Program-made: the position numbers and the translations under genes
Assembly (NCBI GenBank): GCA_963813715.1
Contig: CAWFAK010000012.1
Location: forward strand, 160,001-224,000
Direction: 5' to 3'
From: an uncultured Planctomycetaceae bacterium
Lineage (GTDB): Bacteria; Planctomycetota; Planctomycetia; Planctomycetales; Planctomycetaceae
Length of the DNA stretch: 64,000 bases
Notes under the pieces: generated by a model
What the model saw: only the letters and a program-made list of their open reading frames with translations
The model's database searches: none
Told to the model about the DNA's origin: nothing
Shown: positions 1 to 63,623 of the stretch, one piece after another
Numbering within the stretch: the first letter of the stretch is position 1
Layout: every line of letters begins with the position of its first letter

Positions 1-978
1 TCCGAGTACGCGTTCGGCCTTGCTCACATCGGGCACGCGGTGTTGCACGTCGTACGTGAAGGGGTCGTCCGACTCGTAGCGGAACGGCTTTTGAGAGCCG
101 TTGGCCGCGTGGATCTTGTTCCAGATCAGCTCGGCCAGCTCGAGCACGGTCGTCGCGCGGGGCGTTGAGAGATTGAAATCGTCGTTGAGCGCGGCCGGAT
201 GGAACAGGGCCGTGCAGATGCCGCGGGCCAGGTCGCCGCCATACGTGTAACAGCGGACCTGGTTGCCGTCCCCCAAGATCCGTAGCGGGTCCTGACCTTT
301 GAGAATCTTTTGCACGAGATCGGGAACGACGTGGCTCATCGCCAGCTTGACGTTGCCGCTGGAGATATCGCGATCGCCGAGCGCCCGCCGTTCGCCCACG
401 CCCACGCAGTTGAACGGCCGGCAAATCGTGTAGGGCAAGCCGTATTGTTCGTGCGCGCCCTTCGCGAAGTATTCAGCCGCCAGCTTCTGGAAGCCGTAGG
501 TGCTCGATGGGGGCGGGCAGACCTTGACGTGGTCCTCGGGCGTCGGGAAGACGGTCGCGTTCTCGAAGACCATGCTGCTTGAGAGCACGGTGATCTTCTT
601 GAGGTGCCCTTCGCGGAATGCGCGGATGGCCGCATCAAAGGTGGCCGCCAAAATGCGCTCGTTCTCGGCGATCAGGTCGTAGGCATACGCGTGAAAGTAC
701 GAGATGCCGCCGATGCGGGCGGCCGCCGCGATCACGTGGTCGCACTGTAGGGCCAGCTCGGTCAAGAGGCCGATGTCTTTTGCGTCCCCCTGCACGAACT
801 TGTAGTGCGGATGCGACTCGTAGCTCCGCTCGACCGGGCCATACTTGGAGAAATTGTCGACGCCCAGCACTTTGTGGCCGCGATCCAAAAGCTCTTGCAC
901 GAGATAGCCGGAAATGAATCCGGCCGAGCCCGTGACGAGCACGGTTGTGGGCGTTTCACCGGGAAGTTTGTCGGACAT
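1..978 (-). CDS. NAD-dependent epimerase/dehydratase (extended SDR), 3' end outside window
   Basis: Manual translation from ATG 978: MSDKLPGETPTTVLVTGSAGFISGYLVQELLDRGHKVLGVDNFSKYG (Rossmann TGxxGFI) and catalytic YGFQK (YxxxK). Absent from the ORF track because it runs off the edge. Confidence 0.9.
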   Translation of the reverse strand, partial: MSDKLPGETPTTVLVTGSAGFISGYLVQELLDRGHKVLGVDNFSKYGPVERSYESHPHYKFVQGDAKDIGLLTELALQCDHVIAAAARIGGISYFHAYAYDLIAENERILAATFDAAIRAFREGHLKKITVLSSSMVFENATVFPTPEDHVKVCPPPSSTYGFQKLAAEYFAKGAHEQYGLPYTICRPFNCVGVGERRALGDRDISSGNVKLAMSHVVPDLVQKILKGQDPLRILGDGNQVRCYTYGGDLARGICTALFHPAALNDDFNLSTPRATTVLELAELIWNKIHAANGSQKPFRYESDDPFTYDVQHRVPDVSKAERVLG

Positions 979-1017: not shown

Positions 1018-1765
1018 TCAGACGGCCGCGGTGCGGGCCGGTTTCGTCGCCACCTGCCGGGCGCCGAGCCAGGCGGTGGCGAACGCGTAAAAATACCACC
1101 GCAGATATTTCGGAAGCCAATGGAGCACGCGAAAGCGGCTCTGCCCCGCCGTCCGCTCGTACCACTCGATCGGCACCTCGCCGATGGGCCAGCCCAGGCG
1201 ATGGCACTTCACCAAGAGTTCGATGCTGTAGGTAAAGCCGCTGTCGGACTCGACGGGAATTTCGTCGATCACCCGCCGCGAAAAGAGCCGCAGACCGTTG
1301 CTGGGGTCGCGAACGGGCAACCTGCGCGAGGTGGTACATCGTGAACGACGCGCCCCGCACGAGAAAGCCCTTGAGCCAGGGAGCGCCCACCATGCAGCCG
1401 CCGGGCACGAAGCGGCTGGCGACGACAATGTCGTACCCCTGCTCGGCCTTCTCGACCATGCCGTCGATGCGGCGGGCGTTGAACGTGTCGTCAGCCATGT
1501 AGACGAGCGCGAACGGGGCCGTGCTTTGGGAAAGGCCCGTCATCACGGCGCCGTGCGGGCCGCGGCCGCGGTTTTTCACGAACACAATTTCGACCGCGTC
1601 CCGCTTCGGGTAAGCGTTGATGGCCGGCAGCGTGCTGTCGTCGTCCCGGTCGTAGCAGATGAGGACGCGATGCGGGGTATGGACCTCGGCGACGAACGTG
1701 TCCAGGAGGCGAGTGATGTTCTCGCCTTCCTGATACACGGGGATCACGATGTCGAGTCGAGCCAT
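1018..1765 (-). CDS. Glycosyltransferase family 2 (DPM1-like), frameshift at ~1325
   Basis: MARLDIVIPVYQEGENI...YMADD...ASRF in one frame continues as LPVRDPSNGLRLFSR...YSIELLVK...ERTAGQSRF in another; start overlaps the upstream gene's stop. Confidence 0.85.
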
Positions 1766-50411: not shown

Positions 50412-51083
50412 ATCTTCGGTCTTGTCCCGCGTGTCCCGTCCCGCTGGTCTGAATCAATCCCGTCCCAACGTGTCCTGGGCCCACTTCGGCGGTTTGCCCC
50501 GGTGAAACAACGAGTCCCGTCCCGCGTCCCGAGCCGGCGGCAGAACGAAAGGCACCGGCTTACTGCGTGCGCGGCTCCCTAAGAGGGTCCCGATTGCCGG
50601 GCCGGATCGCCACTCAACGGATCGACACTGACCGGTGGGACTCTCGTCGGTGGGTCCACACCCCTTATATCAATTGTGAGAGACCCGTCCCGGCGGGACC
50701 ACTTTAGGCGGACCCGGCGGGTCAACGTGTCCCGGCGCGCCGGGGATCTTTTGCTCCCTCGATCCTCTATGTGAAAAAAGGATCCCCACCCCGCCGGGGG
50801 ATCCTTTTTCGTCCTCGCGGGGCGCCCTCCACGCGCACAAAACCGCTCGCGCCGAGATCCGCTCTCTCCATTCAGCCACAAAACCGAGATTCGTCCAAGA
50901 TCAGTTTCCTCCGAATCCTCGCTAAGAACCTGGGGAGGTGTTTGATCCCTCTCCCATTCAGATGGGAGAAGCAGTGCCCTCGTCACCATTCCCTCCCTCC
51001 CTCCCTCCCTCGCCTGGAGGATTCGGGCGTATTGCAGCACGGGCTTGGCACGCCGTAATCTGGCAGGATATTCGAGGTTTTGC

Positions 51084-53680
51084 ATGGAAGATCCCAGCCG
51101 TCCCGCGAGCGAGCTGCCACCGTCACCGGCCGCAACGGTGATCGGTAATGATCCGTCTCAGCTAATCGGGGCCGTCATTGGGCCCTACAAGCTCATCGAG
51201 CAAATCGGACAAGGAGGATTTGGCCTCGTTTTCGTTGCCGAGCAGCAGAAGCCTGTCAAACGCCGGGTGGCCCTCAAGGTCATCAAACCGGGGATGGACA
51301 CGCATGACGTGATCAAGCGCTTCGAGGCCGAACGGCAAGCGCTGGCTCTCATGGACCATCCCAACATTGCGCGGGTCCTCGATGCCGGCGCGACAGCTTC
51401 GGGTCGACCGTATTTTGTGATGGAGCTGGTCCACGGCATCCCCATCACGGATTACTGCGACAAGAATCGATTGACCTTGCGCCAGCGCCTCGAGCTGTTC
51501 GTATCCGTTTGCCAGGCCGTTCAGCACGCCCACCAGAAAGGGATCATTCACCGCGACATCAAACCGTCGAACGTGCTGGTGACGGTGCACGATCGTCGGC
51601 CGCTGGTGAAAGTGATCGACTTCGGCGTCGCCAAAGCGCTCCATCAACCGCTGACCGACAAGACGATTTACACGCGTTTTGCGCAGATGGTGGGCACGCC
51701 GCTCTACATGAGCCCCGAGCAGGCGGAGATGACCGGCCTCGACATCGACACGCGCAGCGACATCTATTCGCTGGGGGTGCTCTTGTACGAGCTTTTAACG
51801 GGGACCACCCCATTTGACAGGAAGCGACTGTCGCAGGTCGCCTACGACGAGCTGATCCGCATTATTCGCGACGAAGAACCACCTCGGCCGAGCACGCGGC
51901 TTTCTCGATCGACAGAAACGCTCTCCGCTGTCGCAGCGCACGCAGGACCGAACCGGCGCGGCTCTCGAGGATGTTCCGCGGAGACCTCGACTGGATCACG
52001 ATGAAGGCGCTCGAGAAGGATCGCACGCGGCGCTACGAGACAGCCAATGGTCTGGCGCGAGACGTCGAGCGCGTACTTGCGCGAGGAGCCGGTGGAAGCA
52101 GGTCCGCCTGGAGCCCGCTATCGACTGAGAAAACTGGCCCGGAAGCACCGAACGGCCCTAGGTGTGGTCGGGCTATTTGTGGCGCTCCTGTTAATCTCAG
52201 TCGGCGTGAGCACCTGGCAAGCGGTTCGCGCGAGGAGGGCCGAACGGGAAGCCGTGGCGGAGCGCGACCGAGCTGAGGCTAGCTTCAAGATGGCCCGCGA
52301 TACGGTGGACCGCTTCTTCACTCAAGTCGCTGAAAGCCCAAAGCTCAAGGCGCAGGGGATGGAGAGATTCCGGAGGGACCTGCTTGCCAACGCCAAGGAC
52401 TTTTATGAGCGTTCTATCAAGGAGCAGCTCGATGCGGCAGAGGTGCGCGAGGATCTGGGGCTGGCCCATATTCGGCTGGCCAAGATTCACCAGGTGCTCG
52501 GAGAGTATGCAACGGCACAGGCTCTGTCGGAGAAGGCCATCGAGCTCTTAAGCGAGCTGGCGCGGCGCATCCGGAGGTCGCCGACTATCAGCGCGATTTG
52601 GCTGCCAGTCAATTTGAGCTGGGCTCTGTCTATTTCGACACCGGCAACTTGGACAAGGAGGCTGCCGCGTATCAGCAGGCGCTGCCCATTCAGGTAAAAT
52701 TGTGTAACGACCATCCGGAAGTGGCGGAGTATCGTCGTGCTCTGGCGACCACCCAAGACGCTTTAGGATACTTGGATCTCCGTGCCCGGCGCCTGGAAGG
52801 AGCTCAGGCTAGCCTGGAACAGGCCTTGGTGACGTGGTCCGAACTCGCGAGTGACAGCTCACATCTCCCTGAAGACAGGTATGGGCTTGCGAGGGTGCAA
52901 CAACGGCTCGGCGGGACGTATGGACGGCGGGGCCAGACGGAGAAGTCGGAAGCAAGACTGAAGGAAGCAGCGAGCACGTATCAAGGTTTGGTTCGTGACT
53001 ACCCCGACGTCCCTGAGTACCGTCATTCCCTTGCCAGTACCTACACGGAACTGGGTGCTCTTTATATCAACAATACGCGGCAACTCCAAAATGCGGACGC
53101 AGCTCATCAGAAAGCACTGCAAATTCTTGAGAAGCTGGCTGAGGAGCATCCGGATGTGTTGGAATTTACTTACGACGTGGGTCATTGCTACCACAACCTC
53201 GCGGTGGGCGAGCGGCTACAGGGCCGCTCGGACGCTGCGCTGGCCAGTCTCGACAAGGCAATCAGGATCCTGGAGCATGTCGTTAACAGGGGCTATGGTC
53301 GTGCCCGATCGGATCTCCTCAACGGACGGATTTTGCACGCCTCCGTGCTGACTGTCCGGGGCGCCCACGCGCAGGCGATTGATGAAGTCACTGAGTTAGC
53401 CAGGCAGAACGGTTTAAGCGCGGCCAACTTGTACAACATCGGCTGCGTCTTTGCCCTATCATCGGCCGCTGCCGAGAACGACACGAAACTTTCTGCCGCA
53501 GATCGAACCAGGGTAAAATCGCAATATGCCGACCGTGCCATGGAGTTTTTGCACAAGGCGGTTGCCAAAGGCTTTCAAAACGCTGCCGAGCTGAAAAGCG
53601 ATCCGGACTTTGCTCCGCTACGCTCGCGCGAGGACTTTCAAAAGCTGCTGCGAGAGGTGGAGCAGAAGAACAAGAACTAG
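51084..53680 (+). CDS. Hanks-type Ser/Thr protein kinase with TM and TPR repeats; frameshifts at ~51945, ~52075, ~52565
   Basis: [57 protein letters not shown] helix, TPRs, C-terminal [13 protein letters not shown]. Confidence 0.92.
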
Positions 53681-53739: not shown

Positions 53740-53887
53740 GGGTGGCATGCCCCACGGCTTGGCTTGGGCAACTCTTGCTGCAGTTCGCATGCTCACGCGG
53801 ACGTCGTGAGGCTGTCCGAGAATTCGGTGGGATCTCCGAGCCCTTTCTCACGCTTCGGGCTGTGGTGTCGCGTGCATGAACCCGACG
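53740..53887. repeat. ~148-bp composite direct repeat, copy 1
   Basis: Colinear with 54421-54568 (GGGTGGCATGCCCC...CAGTTCGCATGCTCACGCG...GAATTCGGTGG...GTGTCGCGTGCATGAACCCGACG). Confidence 0.85.
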
Positions 53888-54107
53888 GGTCTGACGCCGC
53901 GGATTGACTCCACAGGAACAAAGCGGACCTTCGAGGACGTGCGGTCCCCAAGCGGAGCTCGCGACCGAGGAAATTTGGTTAATGGATCACTAGTTCTGAT
54001 GCATCTAGCTTGGGGTCGAAGCCGGCGTACTTCCTTTGCTCGGAGCGAGCGATTAATTTCAGCATCACCAGAATCTACCCTGGCCAACTGGACTTACGAG
54101 AGCCGCC

Positions 54108-54420: not shown

Positions 54421-54568
54421 GGGTGGCATGCCCCGCGGCTCGGCGTGGGCATGTCCGGCTACAGTTCGCATGCTCACGCGAACGTCGTGACGCCGTCCGG
54501 GAATTCGGTGGAATCTCGGAGCCCTCGCTCATCCTTCGGGTTGGTGTGTCGCGTGCATGAACCCGACG
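54421..54568. repeat. ~148-bp composite direct repeat, copy 2
   Basis: Matches copy 1; partial third copy at ~58060-58095. Confidence 0.85.
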
Positions 54569-54983
54569 CGTAACGTGAAGGCCGTGCAGCGAGCGGAGCT
54601 TCGAGGAAGAGCGGGTCCCAAGTTGGAGCTTGGCGGCGAAACACTTGTCCCCCGAGCGATCGATTTGCCAAAGAGGGATAAGCTGCTTGCCGGGATATCC
54701 TTTGTCTACGTCGGTCGATGTGATCGACGCGCGCAAAAGGCTTGTGCCGGCGCCATGGCCGGTTTGCGAAACCTGCTCGAGGGAACGTCTTCTTGGAGAA
54801 GTTGTTGAAGTGCGGTCATGATTATAACGGAGCAACTAACGGGAAATCTGCTCGCGGCGATTAACGATTTTGAAACGGTTGCAGGAATCGAACCGTCCGA
54901 CCACGATAAGATTCGAACGCATCATCCCCCCGAATCTCTGCATCGATCGTCCCGACACGGTCTGCCGCAATCCGAGGTGCAGC

Positions 54984-57926: not shown

Positions 57927-58139
57927 GAGCCGATGCGGAATGACCTTAGGCCCGCACGCGCTGGGTATTACATAACTGGCTAGCGATCGTCATCCTCATC
58001 GTTTTTGAGACGTCTCTTCGCTGGTCCCTGAGTGGGACTCTCCGGGAATTCGGTCGGATCTCGGAGTCCTCGCTCACGCTTCGGGTTGGTGTGGGCGCGA
58101 AGACGTTGGGGAGAGTGCAAATCGTTGATTCACCGATCC

Positions 58140-58380: not shown

Positions 58381-59576
58381 TCAGCTCGCCGACCGTTCGC
58401 CTGCGCCTCGAAGCACCTCGGCGACCTCTGCGTGTCCCTTTCCTATCGCAAGGTCAAGCGGCGTTTGACCGTCACCGTTTGTCAGCAGCGGGTTAGCTCC
58501 CTGATCGAGCAACAGTCGCACGATCTGAGCGTGGTTGTTGCCGGCCGCCTCGTGTAGAGGGCTGGTCTTTCCGTCCATGACGTTGAGCAGACTTGGATCT
58601 TCGGCAAGGCGGGCACGGACCAGAAAGTCAAAGCCCCAGTTGGCCGCAACGCAAATGCCAAAAGATCGCGGCTTGCAGCCCAGAACTGGGTCACGCACTT
58701 CCGGATCGGCCCCGGCCTGCTCGAGCAGGGCAATCACCGTGCGCGAGCCGCCGAAGTACGCCCAGTGCAGGGGCGTCGCTCCCAAGAAGGCCCGAAACGA
58801 GAGATCCGGCCGCTTCTCCAAAAGGAATCGCACGACGTCGGCCTGGCCGTTGCGAGAGGCGATGTAAAGCGCGTCGGAAAGTTGATCCCGACCCGACAAC
58901 GGCGGACACGGCAAACGCGTTCCATCGGGTGCAAAACGACTGCTGCCGGTGCGCGATGCGCCGGGAACGAGTTCGCCTGCATCATCGAAGTGGGCTTGAA
59001 CCTCTTCCAGCGCGCCGATTCCCGCCGCGCAAAAGACGTCGGCCTCTGCTCCCAGCGCCACGAGAGTGCGGGCGCATTCGGGCGCGTTGCAGGTCACGGC
59101 CCAGGAGACGGCCGTGTGACCCGACTTCCCGATTTTGGCATCAACGTCGGCACCATAAGCGACCAGCACCGTCGCCAATCGCGGGTCGTTGCACTGCGCG
59201 GCCACATGCAGCGGCGTTTGACCTTCGGAACCGTAGGCCGCCGCCAGAGCCGGGCGGCGACTGAGCAGTTCGGTGACGGCCAGTTCTTCGCCCGCCTCGA
59301 CTGCCGACAGGAGTTGCACGAGATCGGGATCGTCGGGCGACGCGCCGCTGCGGCACGCCCTCGAACTCCGCGGAGCACCGCATCGAGCTTCTCGCGAACC
59401 AGTTCGACGTGGGCCTTGAGTTTGCGCCAGCTCGCGAAGCCGAATTCGCGGGCGACCTCAAGCTGCACGTCACTGAGCCGAGCGGTCGGATTAGTCGCGC
59501 GCAGCGCGTCGAGGCGGTCTTTGCTGAGTTTCTTGAGCCACTCGAGACTGGCGCGGAGGGGGAGCGAGCGAGACAT
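58381..59576 (-). CDS. Ankyrin-repeat protein with conserved N-terminal helical domain, frameshift at ~59345
   Basis: MSRSLPLRASLEWLKK...AREFGFASWRKLK; GQTPLHVAA, ATPLHWA, SPLHEAA, GQTPLDLA. Confidence 0.9.
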
Positions 59577-59580
59577 GCGG

Positions 59581-59710
59581 ATAACCTTCTTTCAACTGCG
59601 CCCGGCGTCCGCGATCACGGGCAGAAAGAAGGCCATCAGAATTTGGCAGGCTGACGAGTGGGTTCAACCCTGCACGCGGACCGTCGGCCGCTCGTCACGG
59701 CCAAAATCCA
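59581..59710 (-). promoter_or_regulatory. Candidate structured 5' leader RNA of the ankyrin gene
   Basis: Two hairpins with complementary loops (GTCCGCG/CGCGGAC); CCTTCTTTC pairs with the GAAAGAAGG RBS region. Confidence 0.55.
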
Positions 59711-59751
59711 CTCTAAACGCGGACCACGGGTCGAAGCAACAGTGCGGTCGG

Positions 59752-61511: not shown

Positions 61512-63623
61512 TCACTTGTTTTGCACGCGCTGGCACTGCTCGACGAGCGAATCCATGTCGAAATAGGGTTGTTCGCCGATTGCCTGCCAGCGCCTGCGAC
61601 CTGCCGAATCAATCACAAACAGACCGTGGAGCGGATGATCCGCAAAGCAACCATATTGCTTGAACACGGAGCGACTTTCGTCGGCCAGGAGCAGCAAGGC
61701 GGACTGCTGGCTTCGTGGCTCATCCGAGAGCGCCGTGATCAATGAATTCTTTGAGTCGGTGCCAATCGCCACGACCGACATGCCGGCCGCTTCCAGCGCC
61801 GACTTACGCGCAGAAATCAGCCGCAGCTGCTCGACGCAATGCGGGCACCCTTTCCCACGGTAAAACGCCAGGACGAGCGGGCGTCCCTTGAACTCCGCAA
61901 GAGTGTGCCATTTGCCGTCGGCGCGGGCAGCCGCCAGGTCGCTGCTTGTCCCAGGTCGGGAAGCGGCTGCCGCTGAGCAACCACTTTCGGCTGTGGCGCG
62001 GTGTTATAACATTTCGCCAGGATCCGAAACATCTCCATCATGCCATAGTCTTCGTGGTCGAGTTTGTGGCAGTGAAGCACGGTTTTGCCGGGATAATCCG
62101 CGAACTGGGTGCGGAAGCAAATCGTGTAGTTCTGTGGCAGAAGGATGGTGTCCTTCCAGACCGGTTGCTTGAGTGTTTCGTTGTTATTTGAGTCCTTGAT
62201 CGAAAGAACTTGAAAAGGATTGACGTGAACGTGAAAGGGATGGTTGTCATTGGAAGAATGCAACGTCCATTCTTCCGCGGTATCGACCTGTGGGCACTGA
62301 TCCGTGCGCACCGGATCGAATAGCAGGCCATTGATCGTCCATGTCGTCGCGGAAAGGCCGGTGAGCTCGAACTTTCTGGTCCCGACGAACGTGTTTATCG
62401 GGGCGTAGGGAGCCAACCCGGCTAATTCGATTTTTGCGGAAAAAGCCTTGATTCCTGCGCTTTCCGCAGACGTGAATCCTCGCCAGCACGGCGGCAGGTT
62501 CATCGCGTCCTCGGCGAAGCGCCTTGTCGGCGGTCGAGGCAAGGTCATAGACCAGGTAGTCCCCCGTATGCTCCGGCGCTTTTACCAAGACATCCGATCG
62601 ATAACCCGGAGCCAAGGTGATCGGCTCCCTGGGATAGATGTCACCAAAGGCAATTCCATCGTTGGCAATTTCGTTGAAGAACGGGACTGGCTGGTCGGTG
62701 AGTGTCCTCAGTGCCAGATCGATTCGCTCTCCGATCCCCGCGTGAATCAAACGCCACCGCTGCACTTCGCAAGGGGCCATTTCGATCACGGGTTGCAACA
62801 GCCCGTTAATCGTCGTCTGACGTCCGGGTTCCGGCCAGCTTTGAATCGCGTTGGTCGATTCCACCGTTCCCGGATTTCCGTCGGAAAATGGAATCTGTTG
62901 AAACAACAGAGTGTGCTCTGTCGCGGCTTTGATTTCGGGAACTTCGTCCAAACCGCCTTCGACAATCAGCGCACCTGCCATCCCGCTACAGACCTGGACG
63001 GCCACTGCCATATGCTTATGCGGGTGGTACCAATGTGTGCCGGGCGGATGCTTCGGACCGATCGTGATGGAGTAATCCTGCCGCCCGCGCGGCGGAACCT
63101 GGATAAACGGATTGTCGCTGTTGTCCTCTGGTGAAACGTGCAAGCCATGGGTATGCAGATTGGTCGTGTTGTATCCGTGCGGAATTAAAGGAGGCGTCGG
63201 CTTCGGTTCATCCAACATGTCGTTGATCAACCGGATTGCGAGCGTGTCCCCTGGGCGAACTCGGAACGTCGGCCCCACGAGCCCACCGTTGTACGACCGT
63301 AACTTCACGACATGGCCGCCGATGGTGTTGTAGGCGTAATTGACCACGAGCGTCGTCTGCAAAATCCCGTCTCCCGAGTGAACCACGGGCGGATCTCGAA
63401 ACGGAACCTGGCTGGCGATCGCCCCGGACTTCGACGCGCGTTCGTAATCTTGGATAAAGGTCAAGGTCCTCACCGGTGGGGCGACCGGCACGTGATCGTC
63501 GGACACCTGGCCCTGTCGTGGCACGCCCGAGGCAGCCGTCATCGCATCTTCGGCGGCTGACTTCGAACCCAAACCGATGAGAAGAGCTAGTGCGACAGCG
63601 AATTTGGCGTTTTGTGTTAGCAC
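61512..63623 (-). CDS. Multicopper oxidase, apparently fused to a C-terminal AhpC/TSA redoxin domain; frameshifts at ~62400-62460 and ~61920
   Basis: NLHTHG, WYHPH, HPFHVH, HCHKLDHEDYGMM; no stop before a shift into DGKWHTLAEFKGRPLVLAFYRGKGCPHCVEQL...HGLFVID. Confidence 0.8.

Follow-up and report, generated by a model that had tools for sequence, protein, structure and literature searches.

An ankyrin-repeat gene in the genome of an uncultured Planctomycetaceae bacterium is preceded by a compact array of complementary elements (59581–59710, minus strand, in the window, i.e. the whole stretch of 64,000 nucleotides analysed here). The question raised by this locus is whether these elements form an actual regulatory RNA and, if so, what this RNA controls and what acts on it. 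In the original prediction, the elements were drawn as two hairpin domains with kissing loops, one of which sequesters the ribosome-binding site (RBS). A reading of the sequence finds all of the quoted elements exactly where they had been placed. As judged by sequence comparison, the leader is a real member of a large RNA family outside Rfam. The Rfam 15 covariance models give no match to the leader, in agreement with the prior statement that no named family could be assigned, and detect only one tRNA in the window, the sole match near the locus being a chance miRNA match (E 2.8).

Fold of the leader and its conservation

The conserved fold includes an H-type pseudoknot (P1/pk1) that carries P2 and the kissing strand, followed by the hairpin that holds the RBS (Table 1). 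The 5′ domain of the original drawing survives in part: its TGACGAG/CTCGTCA helix is borne out by compensatory changes, but P1 was absent from the drawing and the outer TTTGGC/GCCAAA helix is rejected as local chance. The duplex energy of this outer helix is −5.20 kcal/mol for the native strands compared with −5.04 ± 0.20 kcal/mol for swapped ones (104 leaders); it is partly broken even in a near-identical relative (L001) and overlaps the conserved stem GGCCG/CGGCC.

Table 1. Elements of the leader, its predicted promoter and its gene in the window.
Feature	Coordinates	Strand	Remarks
pk1 strands as originally quoted	TGACGAG 59697-59691 / CTCGTCA 59658-59652	-	
Kissing strands as originally quoted	GTCCGCG 59681-59675; CGCGGAC 59613-59607	-	
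Promoter, predicted sigma-70-type	59710..59739	-	−35-like TTGCTT 59739-59734, 18-nt spacer, −10-like TAGAGT 59715-59710
P1 hairpin	GGCCG 59702-59698 / CGGCC 59690-59686	-	loop is the 5′ strand of pk1
pk1	P1 loop (T)GACGAG 59697-59691 + CTCGTC(A) 59658-59652	-	H-type pseudoknot with P1
pk2 kissing helix	GTCCGC 59681-59676 + GCGGAC 59612-59607	-	second strand in the 3′ hairpin loop
P2 hairpin GGGTTGAACCC	59670-59660	-	GGG / CCC; purine-rich strand 5′, single purine 3′
P3	anti-RBS CCTTCTTTC 59632-59624 / RBS tract GAAAGAAGG 59593-59585	-	83.7% and 75.5% paired, double changes; RBS tract lies 8 nt before ATG 59576
P4	GCCCG 59622-59618 / CGGGC 59604-59600	-	stem presenting the kissing loop; 88.3% paired
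N-terminal three-helix basic domain	59388..59576	-	distant Glyoxalase_8 relative (positions ~4-60); candidate RNA binder
Ankyrin-repeat cargo	58381..59319	-	Pfam Ank E 1.7e-37

The pairs were assessed in an alignment of the window leader with 62 of the 109 domain-linked leaders described below. The proposed pairs are formed in 82.8% of the cases and reach a covariation score of 0.232, compared with 0.148 after shuffling and at most 0.141 with slid partners. In pk1, 88.9% of the cells are paired, three of the four core pairs have changed on both sides, and the top mutual-information pair (95% paired) lies in this helix; one P4 pair, alternating among C-G, U-A and U-G, shows 14 double changes. 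P1 is paired in 43% of the alignment, a low value because its register varies; with loops of 5–9 nt, all four pairs form in 94 of the 104 leaders, compared with 40.7 ± 3.8 when the 3′ strands are swapped. The anti-RBS hairpin, as originally proposed, is corroborated both by compensatory changes and by duplex energies (native −12.4, swapped −9.3 ± 0.19 kcal/mol, n = 104), and P3 is rich in U-G pairs.

In the metagenome set, pk2 and P2 were unable to covary because the search pattern fixed both. The kissing helix was tested on 46 protein-first loci, of which 35 contain a match to the covariance model (36 matches in total); this model includes no pseudoknot pairs but favours the consensus letters. 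All six pk2 pairs are formed in 35 of the 36 matches, and the remaining one (L179) pairs by eye with one G-U; compensatory double changes, of six types, are found in eight matches. Among the 11 loci without a model match, three have further compensatory kissing helices (L185, L191 and L195), two have a fold visible by eye (L158 and L219), three retain a partial RNA (L017, L182 and L196), one is ambiguous (L152), and two encode the domain with no leader found (L186 and L194). The 46 loci exclude L003, L013 and L016, which have matches, L153, in which no leader is seen, duplicates, and the weak protein matches L154, L155 and L160. For P2, the variants GGA/TCC and GAA/TTC occur in the alignments of protein-first leaders. 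Covariation, the check to which the original prediction had submitted itself, is present both in the loop–loop helix and in the anti-RBS/RBS stem. The loop complementarity of seven nucleotides is reduced to six conserved base pairs, the seventh position being G-C in 29, G-U in 39 and unpaired in 41 of the 109 leaders.

By itself, the folding energy of the window leader provides little evidence (z −1.92; 6 of 200 shuffles do as well); the comparative evidence is strong. Several other explanations of the conserved elements were rejected. A single-stranded DNA structure is disfavoured by the strand-specific U-G pairs and by the position between the promoter box and the start codon; an HDV-like ribozyme has a different stem order and there is no Rfam match; and, for a leader peptide, no ATG column is conserved besides the start, with some ATG present in 65 of the 109 leaders.

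Linkage to a basic N-terminal domain with variable cargo

The exact pattern, with the kissing helix and P2 fixed, is matched by approximately 10,000 metagenome stretches (an extrapolation by the search tool from 1 of 64 parts) and by two viral contigs. Of the 122 matches that were fetched, 109 directly precede the same three-helix N-terminal domain of 55–90 amino acids, so that the gene of the presumed binder has a structured RNA as part of its 5′ UTR. The remaining 13 comprise seven without the other stems by eye, which are likely chance matches, three at contig edges, and three true exceptions (L125, L128 and L142), i.e. real leaders with no intact domain within the 300 nt examined. A broken or absent domain next to the RNA is also seen in L171 and at the second leader of L003; conversely, the domain stands without the RNA in L153 in addition to the two loci listed above. 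The second leader of L003 (2820–2953) is intact and lies right after the ankyrin gene, and in the next ORF the domain is reduced to its first codons; this is a recent duplication followed by decay. In L011, two divergent genes, one with a cargo that is VOC-like by eye and the other with ankyrin repeats, each have their own leader and domain (665–792, minus strand, and 1349–1476, plus strand).

The linkage holds across phyla. In 151 genomes of Actinomycetota, all eight model matches with E<0.003 precede the domain and four weaker matches do not, and in the genome from which the window comes, the covariance model finds exactly three leaders, each before one of the three domain genes. The leaders of the two paralogous genes have the same core as that of the window, and BLAST and nhmmer searches of this genome with the window leader miss both. 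The named records of the family belong to Planctomycetota, Acidobacteriota, Pseudomonadota and Actinomycetota, and include a Pseudomonas plasmid with a leader before a DUF1835 gene; among the listed sequencing runs, there is no holder of the RNA.

In 88 of 104 leaders, a TAnnnT box occurs at a distance of 28–36 nt upstream of the kissing strand, compared with 2 of 104 in a control window. The box directly precedes P1, with a TTG peak about 23 nt further upstream; a strict consensus promoter scan did not list the site in the window. This −10-like box just upstream leads to the prediction that the RNA is a 5′ UTR with a length of about 125 nt; the linker is 16–38 nt long, the minimum being partly set by the search pattern. 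By eye, no shared downstream gene is seen in 60 loci, which points to the gene directly behind the leader as the evident target, and a regulated operon is rejected.

The domain of the window protein is predicted by AlphaFold2 (pLDDT 87) to consist of three helices (11–28, 34–44 and 50–66). The conserved residues are K/R at positions 15 (98%), 16, 19 (99%) and 43, Q38 and the invariant W50; the median net charge is +4, compared with −1.5 for the next 67 amino acids. The domain profile matches 10,842 protein clusters at 50% identity (E<=0.001). Neither a Pfam match for the domain starting at ATG 59576 nor a significant fold match (best Foldseek E 1.2, best VIA Z 4.8) was obtained, and searches of PDB sequences and the ESM Atlas gave nothing significant, so that neither structure nor sequence links the domain significantly to any known RNA-binding fold or solved binder. 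An additional internal domain copy occurs frequently (e.g. G000:C8:589915-590124 and many of the proteins P0086–P0235), hinting at a dimeric mode.

The features described so far bear on one rival reading of the locus, namely a stand-alone dampener or thermometer that has no specific binder, in which the promoter, leader and first domain are shuffled as a cassette and the fold either holds translation at a low level or opens upon heating or cleavage. The many U-G pairs in P3 fit such an element, as does the decay of the cassette in places (L125, L128, L142 and the second copy of L003). A simple hairpin would suffice for this role, however, and the two conserved pseudoknots, the conserved unpaired bases, and the invariant W and K/R residues across the ~10,800 protein clusters would be left unexplained, which makes this reading quite improbable.

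The original prediction tied the leader to an ankyrin gene and named its small N-terminal domain as a candidate autoregulatory binder; the tight link with this domain is supported. An ankyrin gene is indeed present at the window locus, but the leader is linked to the domain and not to the ankyrin repeats because the cargo differs widely. Among 69 RNA-linked loci, with at most the first 225 amino acids considered, the cargo is ankyrin in 32, Clp_N in 3, DUF1835 in 2, and FliG_C and WD40 in 1 each, and in many there is no Pfam match; longer loci add LRR, beta-lactamase, APH and T2SSF/T2SSE, and VOC is also among the cargo. In 130 of the best 150 proteins, which come without genomic context, the cargo includes ankyrin (34), Clp_N (11), LRR (8), FliM (3), FliG_C (2) and the ClpX zinc finger (2). 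Fusions to lone parts of molecular machines, namely FliM, FliG_C, Clp_N, the ClpX zinc finger and T2SSF/T2SSE, are found in P0122, P0126, P0131, P0200, P0123, P0160, L070 and L150; such cargo looks like decoys.

In the window itself, the start codon (ATG 59576) and the ankyrin ORF are in different frames, a garbled stretch at about 59375–59345 accounting for a net loss of 7 nt, and the near-identical relative (L001) encodes an intact orthologue of 400 amino acids as a single protein. The frameshift is probably a sequencing error, since neighbouring genes also look split: a DNA alkylation repair gene upstream (PF08713; 59752–60652, minus strand) is split across frames, and a kinase gene (51045–53680) and an oxidase-like gene (61817–63623) look split on visual inspection, a sign that the assembly may be error-prone. 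The window also contains three copies of an intergenic repeat of ~150 nt in a REP-like position (53740–53890, 54421–54571 and 58032–58093), which are 81–85% identical, the third being matched over 62 nt.

Sister classes of the leader

The window protein does not match the Pfam family Glyoxalase_8 (PF20066); of 69 relatives, eight weakly match the N-terminal part of the Glyoxalase_8 model only (E 6e-5 to 4e-3). In HHalign comparisons, the domain linked to the window-type leaders (class I) reaches 96.8% with the N-terminus of Glyoxalase_8 (class II), and the latter reaches 96.4% with the domain linked to the COG3860 RNA (class III, RF02940), for which the profile was built from five sequences; the link between classes I and III is transitive because the direct comparison gives only 9%. 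These profile comparisons make the domain distantly related to the N-terminal part of Glyoxalase_8.

Among 29 distinct Glyoxalase_8 loci from the class and order of Ensifer, 25 have a class II leader by pattern, one by eye, one has none, and two have the COG3860 RNA (71 bits). In the class II alignment (22 of the 25), 84.6% of the proposed positions are paired and the covariation score is 0.411, compared with 0.202 after shuffling; P1, pk1, P2, pk2 and P4 covary. The pk2 helix is 100% paired, with double changes in two of its six pairs, three of which were fixed by the selection pattern. The class II leaders share with class I the topology and a homologous N-terminal domain, but differ in their core letters and have a longer 3′ stem; in this analysis, they were encountered only in the class of Ensifer, and they match neither Rfam nor the class I model. 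Of the proteins encoded at the class II loci (L172–L178 and L197–L217), the members of 143 amino acids have a C-terminal part without a separate Pfam name, and others carry Glyoxalase_7. One cultured Ensifer genome (G061) contains both a class I (L015) and a class II (L172) locus.

The COG3860 RNA presumably comes from PMC5737381, the main text of which does not name it. It resembles class I in having P1, a pairing of the P1 loop after the second hairpin and a conserved kissing single strand in between, all in the same order, and a long 3′ stem with a purine tract at its base. The RF02940 model, with 54 positions, stops short of both the kissing partner and the RBS stem; beyond its end, in a small set of seven COG3860 RNAs, the single strand pairs with a hairpin loop (100% paired), and four of the six pairs have changed on both sides. 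The extended fold is seen at L216:1330–1476, L218:1327–1482 and L230–L234, and the COG3860 family could be extended by this conserved 3′ hairpin. The genes that follow have an N-terminus homologous to the class II domain. The differences lie in the conserved letters and the cargo, which is DUF2087 for RF02940 and ankyrin for the window RNA, and RF02940 has no match in the window, either at the gathering threshold (42.5 bits) or at E<=10, and none in 20 class I loci. The window RNA is thus not a member of RF02940 but is built like it.

Overall, three domain subfamilies are each accompanied by their own RNA class, and nearly all conserved letters differ among the three classes while the topology is kept. 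This tracking of classes and subfamilies is ambiguous because physical linkage alone would also produce it.

Riboswitches usually govern unrelated genes of one pathway. The conserved leader could be a riboswitch for a small molecule or an ion, with the 5′ knot and the kissing loop serving as the aptamer, a ligand that opens or locks the RBS hairpin, and a domain kept for another reason, e.g. handling the same signal. A complex conserved fold with two pseudoknots does lie beside an RBS-sequestering stem, and these pseudoknots, the conserved unpaired purines and the spread over several phyla match the description of biochemically sophisticated RNAs in the main text of PMC5737381; furthermore, a strong promoter followed by a buried RBS suits an ON switch, and some of the cargo is of the detoxification type (VOC, beta-lactamase, APH). 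Against this stand the constant part, which is one small non-enzymatic domain followed by cargo without a common pathway, and the divergence of the conserved letters between the classes, to the extent that the class I model misses class II, so that a riboswitch appears unlikely.

Proposed autoregulation and its implications

Comparison of the sequences establishes the covarying stems, the anti-RBS/RBS covariation, the promoter-like box, the nearly one-to-one link between RNA and domain, and the correspondence of three RNA classes to three domain subfamilies. Beyond these, the chances are about even that the leader is an autoregulatory translational element bound by the protein it encodes. Under such a mechanism, the leader would fold into two pseudoknots and hold the RBS in a hairpin, the 5′ knot would dock onto the loop of this hairpin, and the basic N-terminal domain would clamp the docked leader, so that translation of the protein would be blocked by the protein itself until the variable C-terminal cargo is engaged by a ligand or partner. 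The domain is kept across cargo swaps and therefore speaks for a binder, given that a purely cis-acting sensor needs no 60–90 codons. Its basic charge with near-invariant K/R, and the matching of each subfamily to an RNA class of the same topology, point the same way.

Of the steps in this mechanism, the direction, taken here as repression and not activation, is the weakest. The median cost of opening the start region is 16.5 kcal/mol, compared with 11.1 kcal/mol for 82 pattern-selected control genes of the same genome, a rough comparison in which the segment lengths differ. Because the RBS stem is strong alone, a repressor is possibly redundant and the binder is possibly an activator. It is conceivable, accordingly, that the domain binds the leader but activates translation, or works in cis while still a nascent chain, resulting in positive feedback or an RNA–protein particle. 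The apparently closed default state of the RBS stem would fit, as would co-translational action in cis of a domain whose best profile match starts no later than residue 20 in 146 of the best 150 proteins, and the second domain copy of many members. The N-terminal position, however, also follows if leader and domain are inherited as a cassette, and the list of the top 150 proteins is biased towards those with two copies. Moreover, for the one candidate anti-anti-RBS strand, the purine strand before P2, the native duplex energy is −4.29 kcal/mol compared with −4.51 ± 0.12 kcal/mol for swapped strands. With no covarying anti-anti-RBS pairing found for this one strand, activation or action in cis appears distinctly unlikely, and the original reading of the leader as a switch is unproven.

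Autoregulation through a pseudoknotted leader has precedents: according to passages of PMC3616713, the ribosomal proteins S4 and S15 bind such leaders of their own mRNAs and repress translation. The S4 alpha-operon double pseudoknot (RF00140) and the S15 rpsO pseudoknot (RF00114) are, as proposed here, 5′ leaders bound by the protein encoded downstream; they differ in that there is no sequence match, the gene here is not ribosomal, the RBS here is in a kissing-linked hairpin, and the binding here is proposed. A likeness in logic only is offered by mycobacterial ClpC2, a 'molecular sponge' protein with a copy of a toxin-targeted Clp N-domain that, according to PMC10030653, acts as a repressor of its own gene until the ligand sets it free; Clp_N cargo accounts for 11 of 130 proteins in the present family. 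ClpC2 acts on a DNA operator, and contact with DNA via its C-terminal domain is suggested in that paper.

A broader possibility, to which only a modest chance can be assigned, is that the locus represents a portable one-component cassette acting at the RNA level, made of a promoter, a double-pseudoknot leader and an RNA-binding domain, with at least three orthogonal pairs, in which the ligand of the cargo (toxin, antibiotic or phage protein) induces its own sponge. Thousands of domains that bind partners or serve as decoys (ankyrin, LRR, WD40, Clp_N, ClpX zinc finger, FliG/FliM, VOC) would have been joined to this cassette, and each fusion would silence its own mRNA until the cargo is occupied, as a translational counterpart of ClpC2.

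A full-text literature search retrieved no description of class I or class II leaders among the matches listed. The motifs Solibacter-1, Soil-1 and GUCCY, as they appear in the accessible part of Weinberg 2010 (PMC2864571), were rejected as different sequences, and four class I core strings are absent from eight supplements of that paper. The supplements of PMC5737381 and PMC11109978 may bear on novelty; one supplement of PMC8632094 was searched and yielded nothing. A preprint (10.64898/2026.10.21.760802) describes, in its accessible part, a database of 20,149 clusters, one of which (#630,527) is a motif before glyoxalase, monooxygenase or NmrA genes; on that description, this cluster might be class II, and the database may well hold class I unnamed.

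Despite their abundance, neither the leader nor the domain has an entry of its own in the Rfam and Pfam libraries scanned. The connection with class II and the COG3860 RNA, an orphan, supplies the latter with its missing 3′ half and a named candidate binder, and thus makes it directly testable. Because class I and class II occur together in one cultured Ensifer genome, cross-specificity can be tested in a single organism. Should the pairs prove orthogonal, they would also provide compact parts for translational control.
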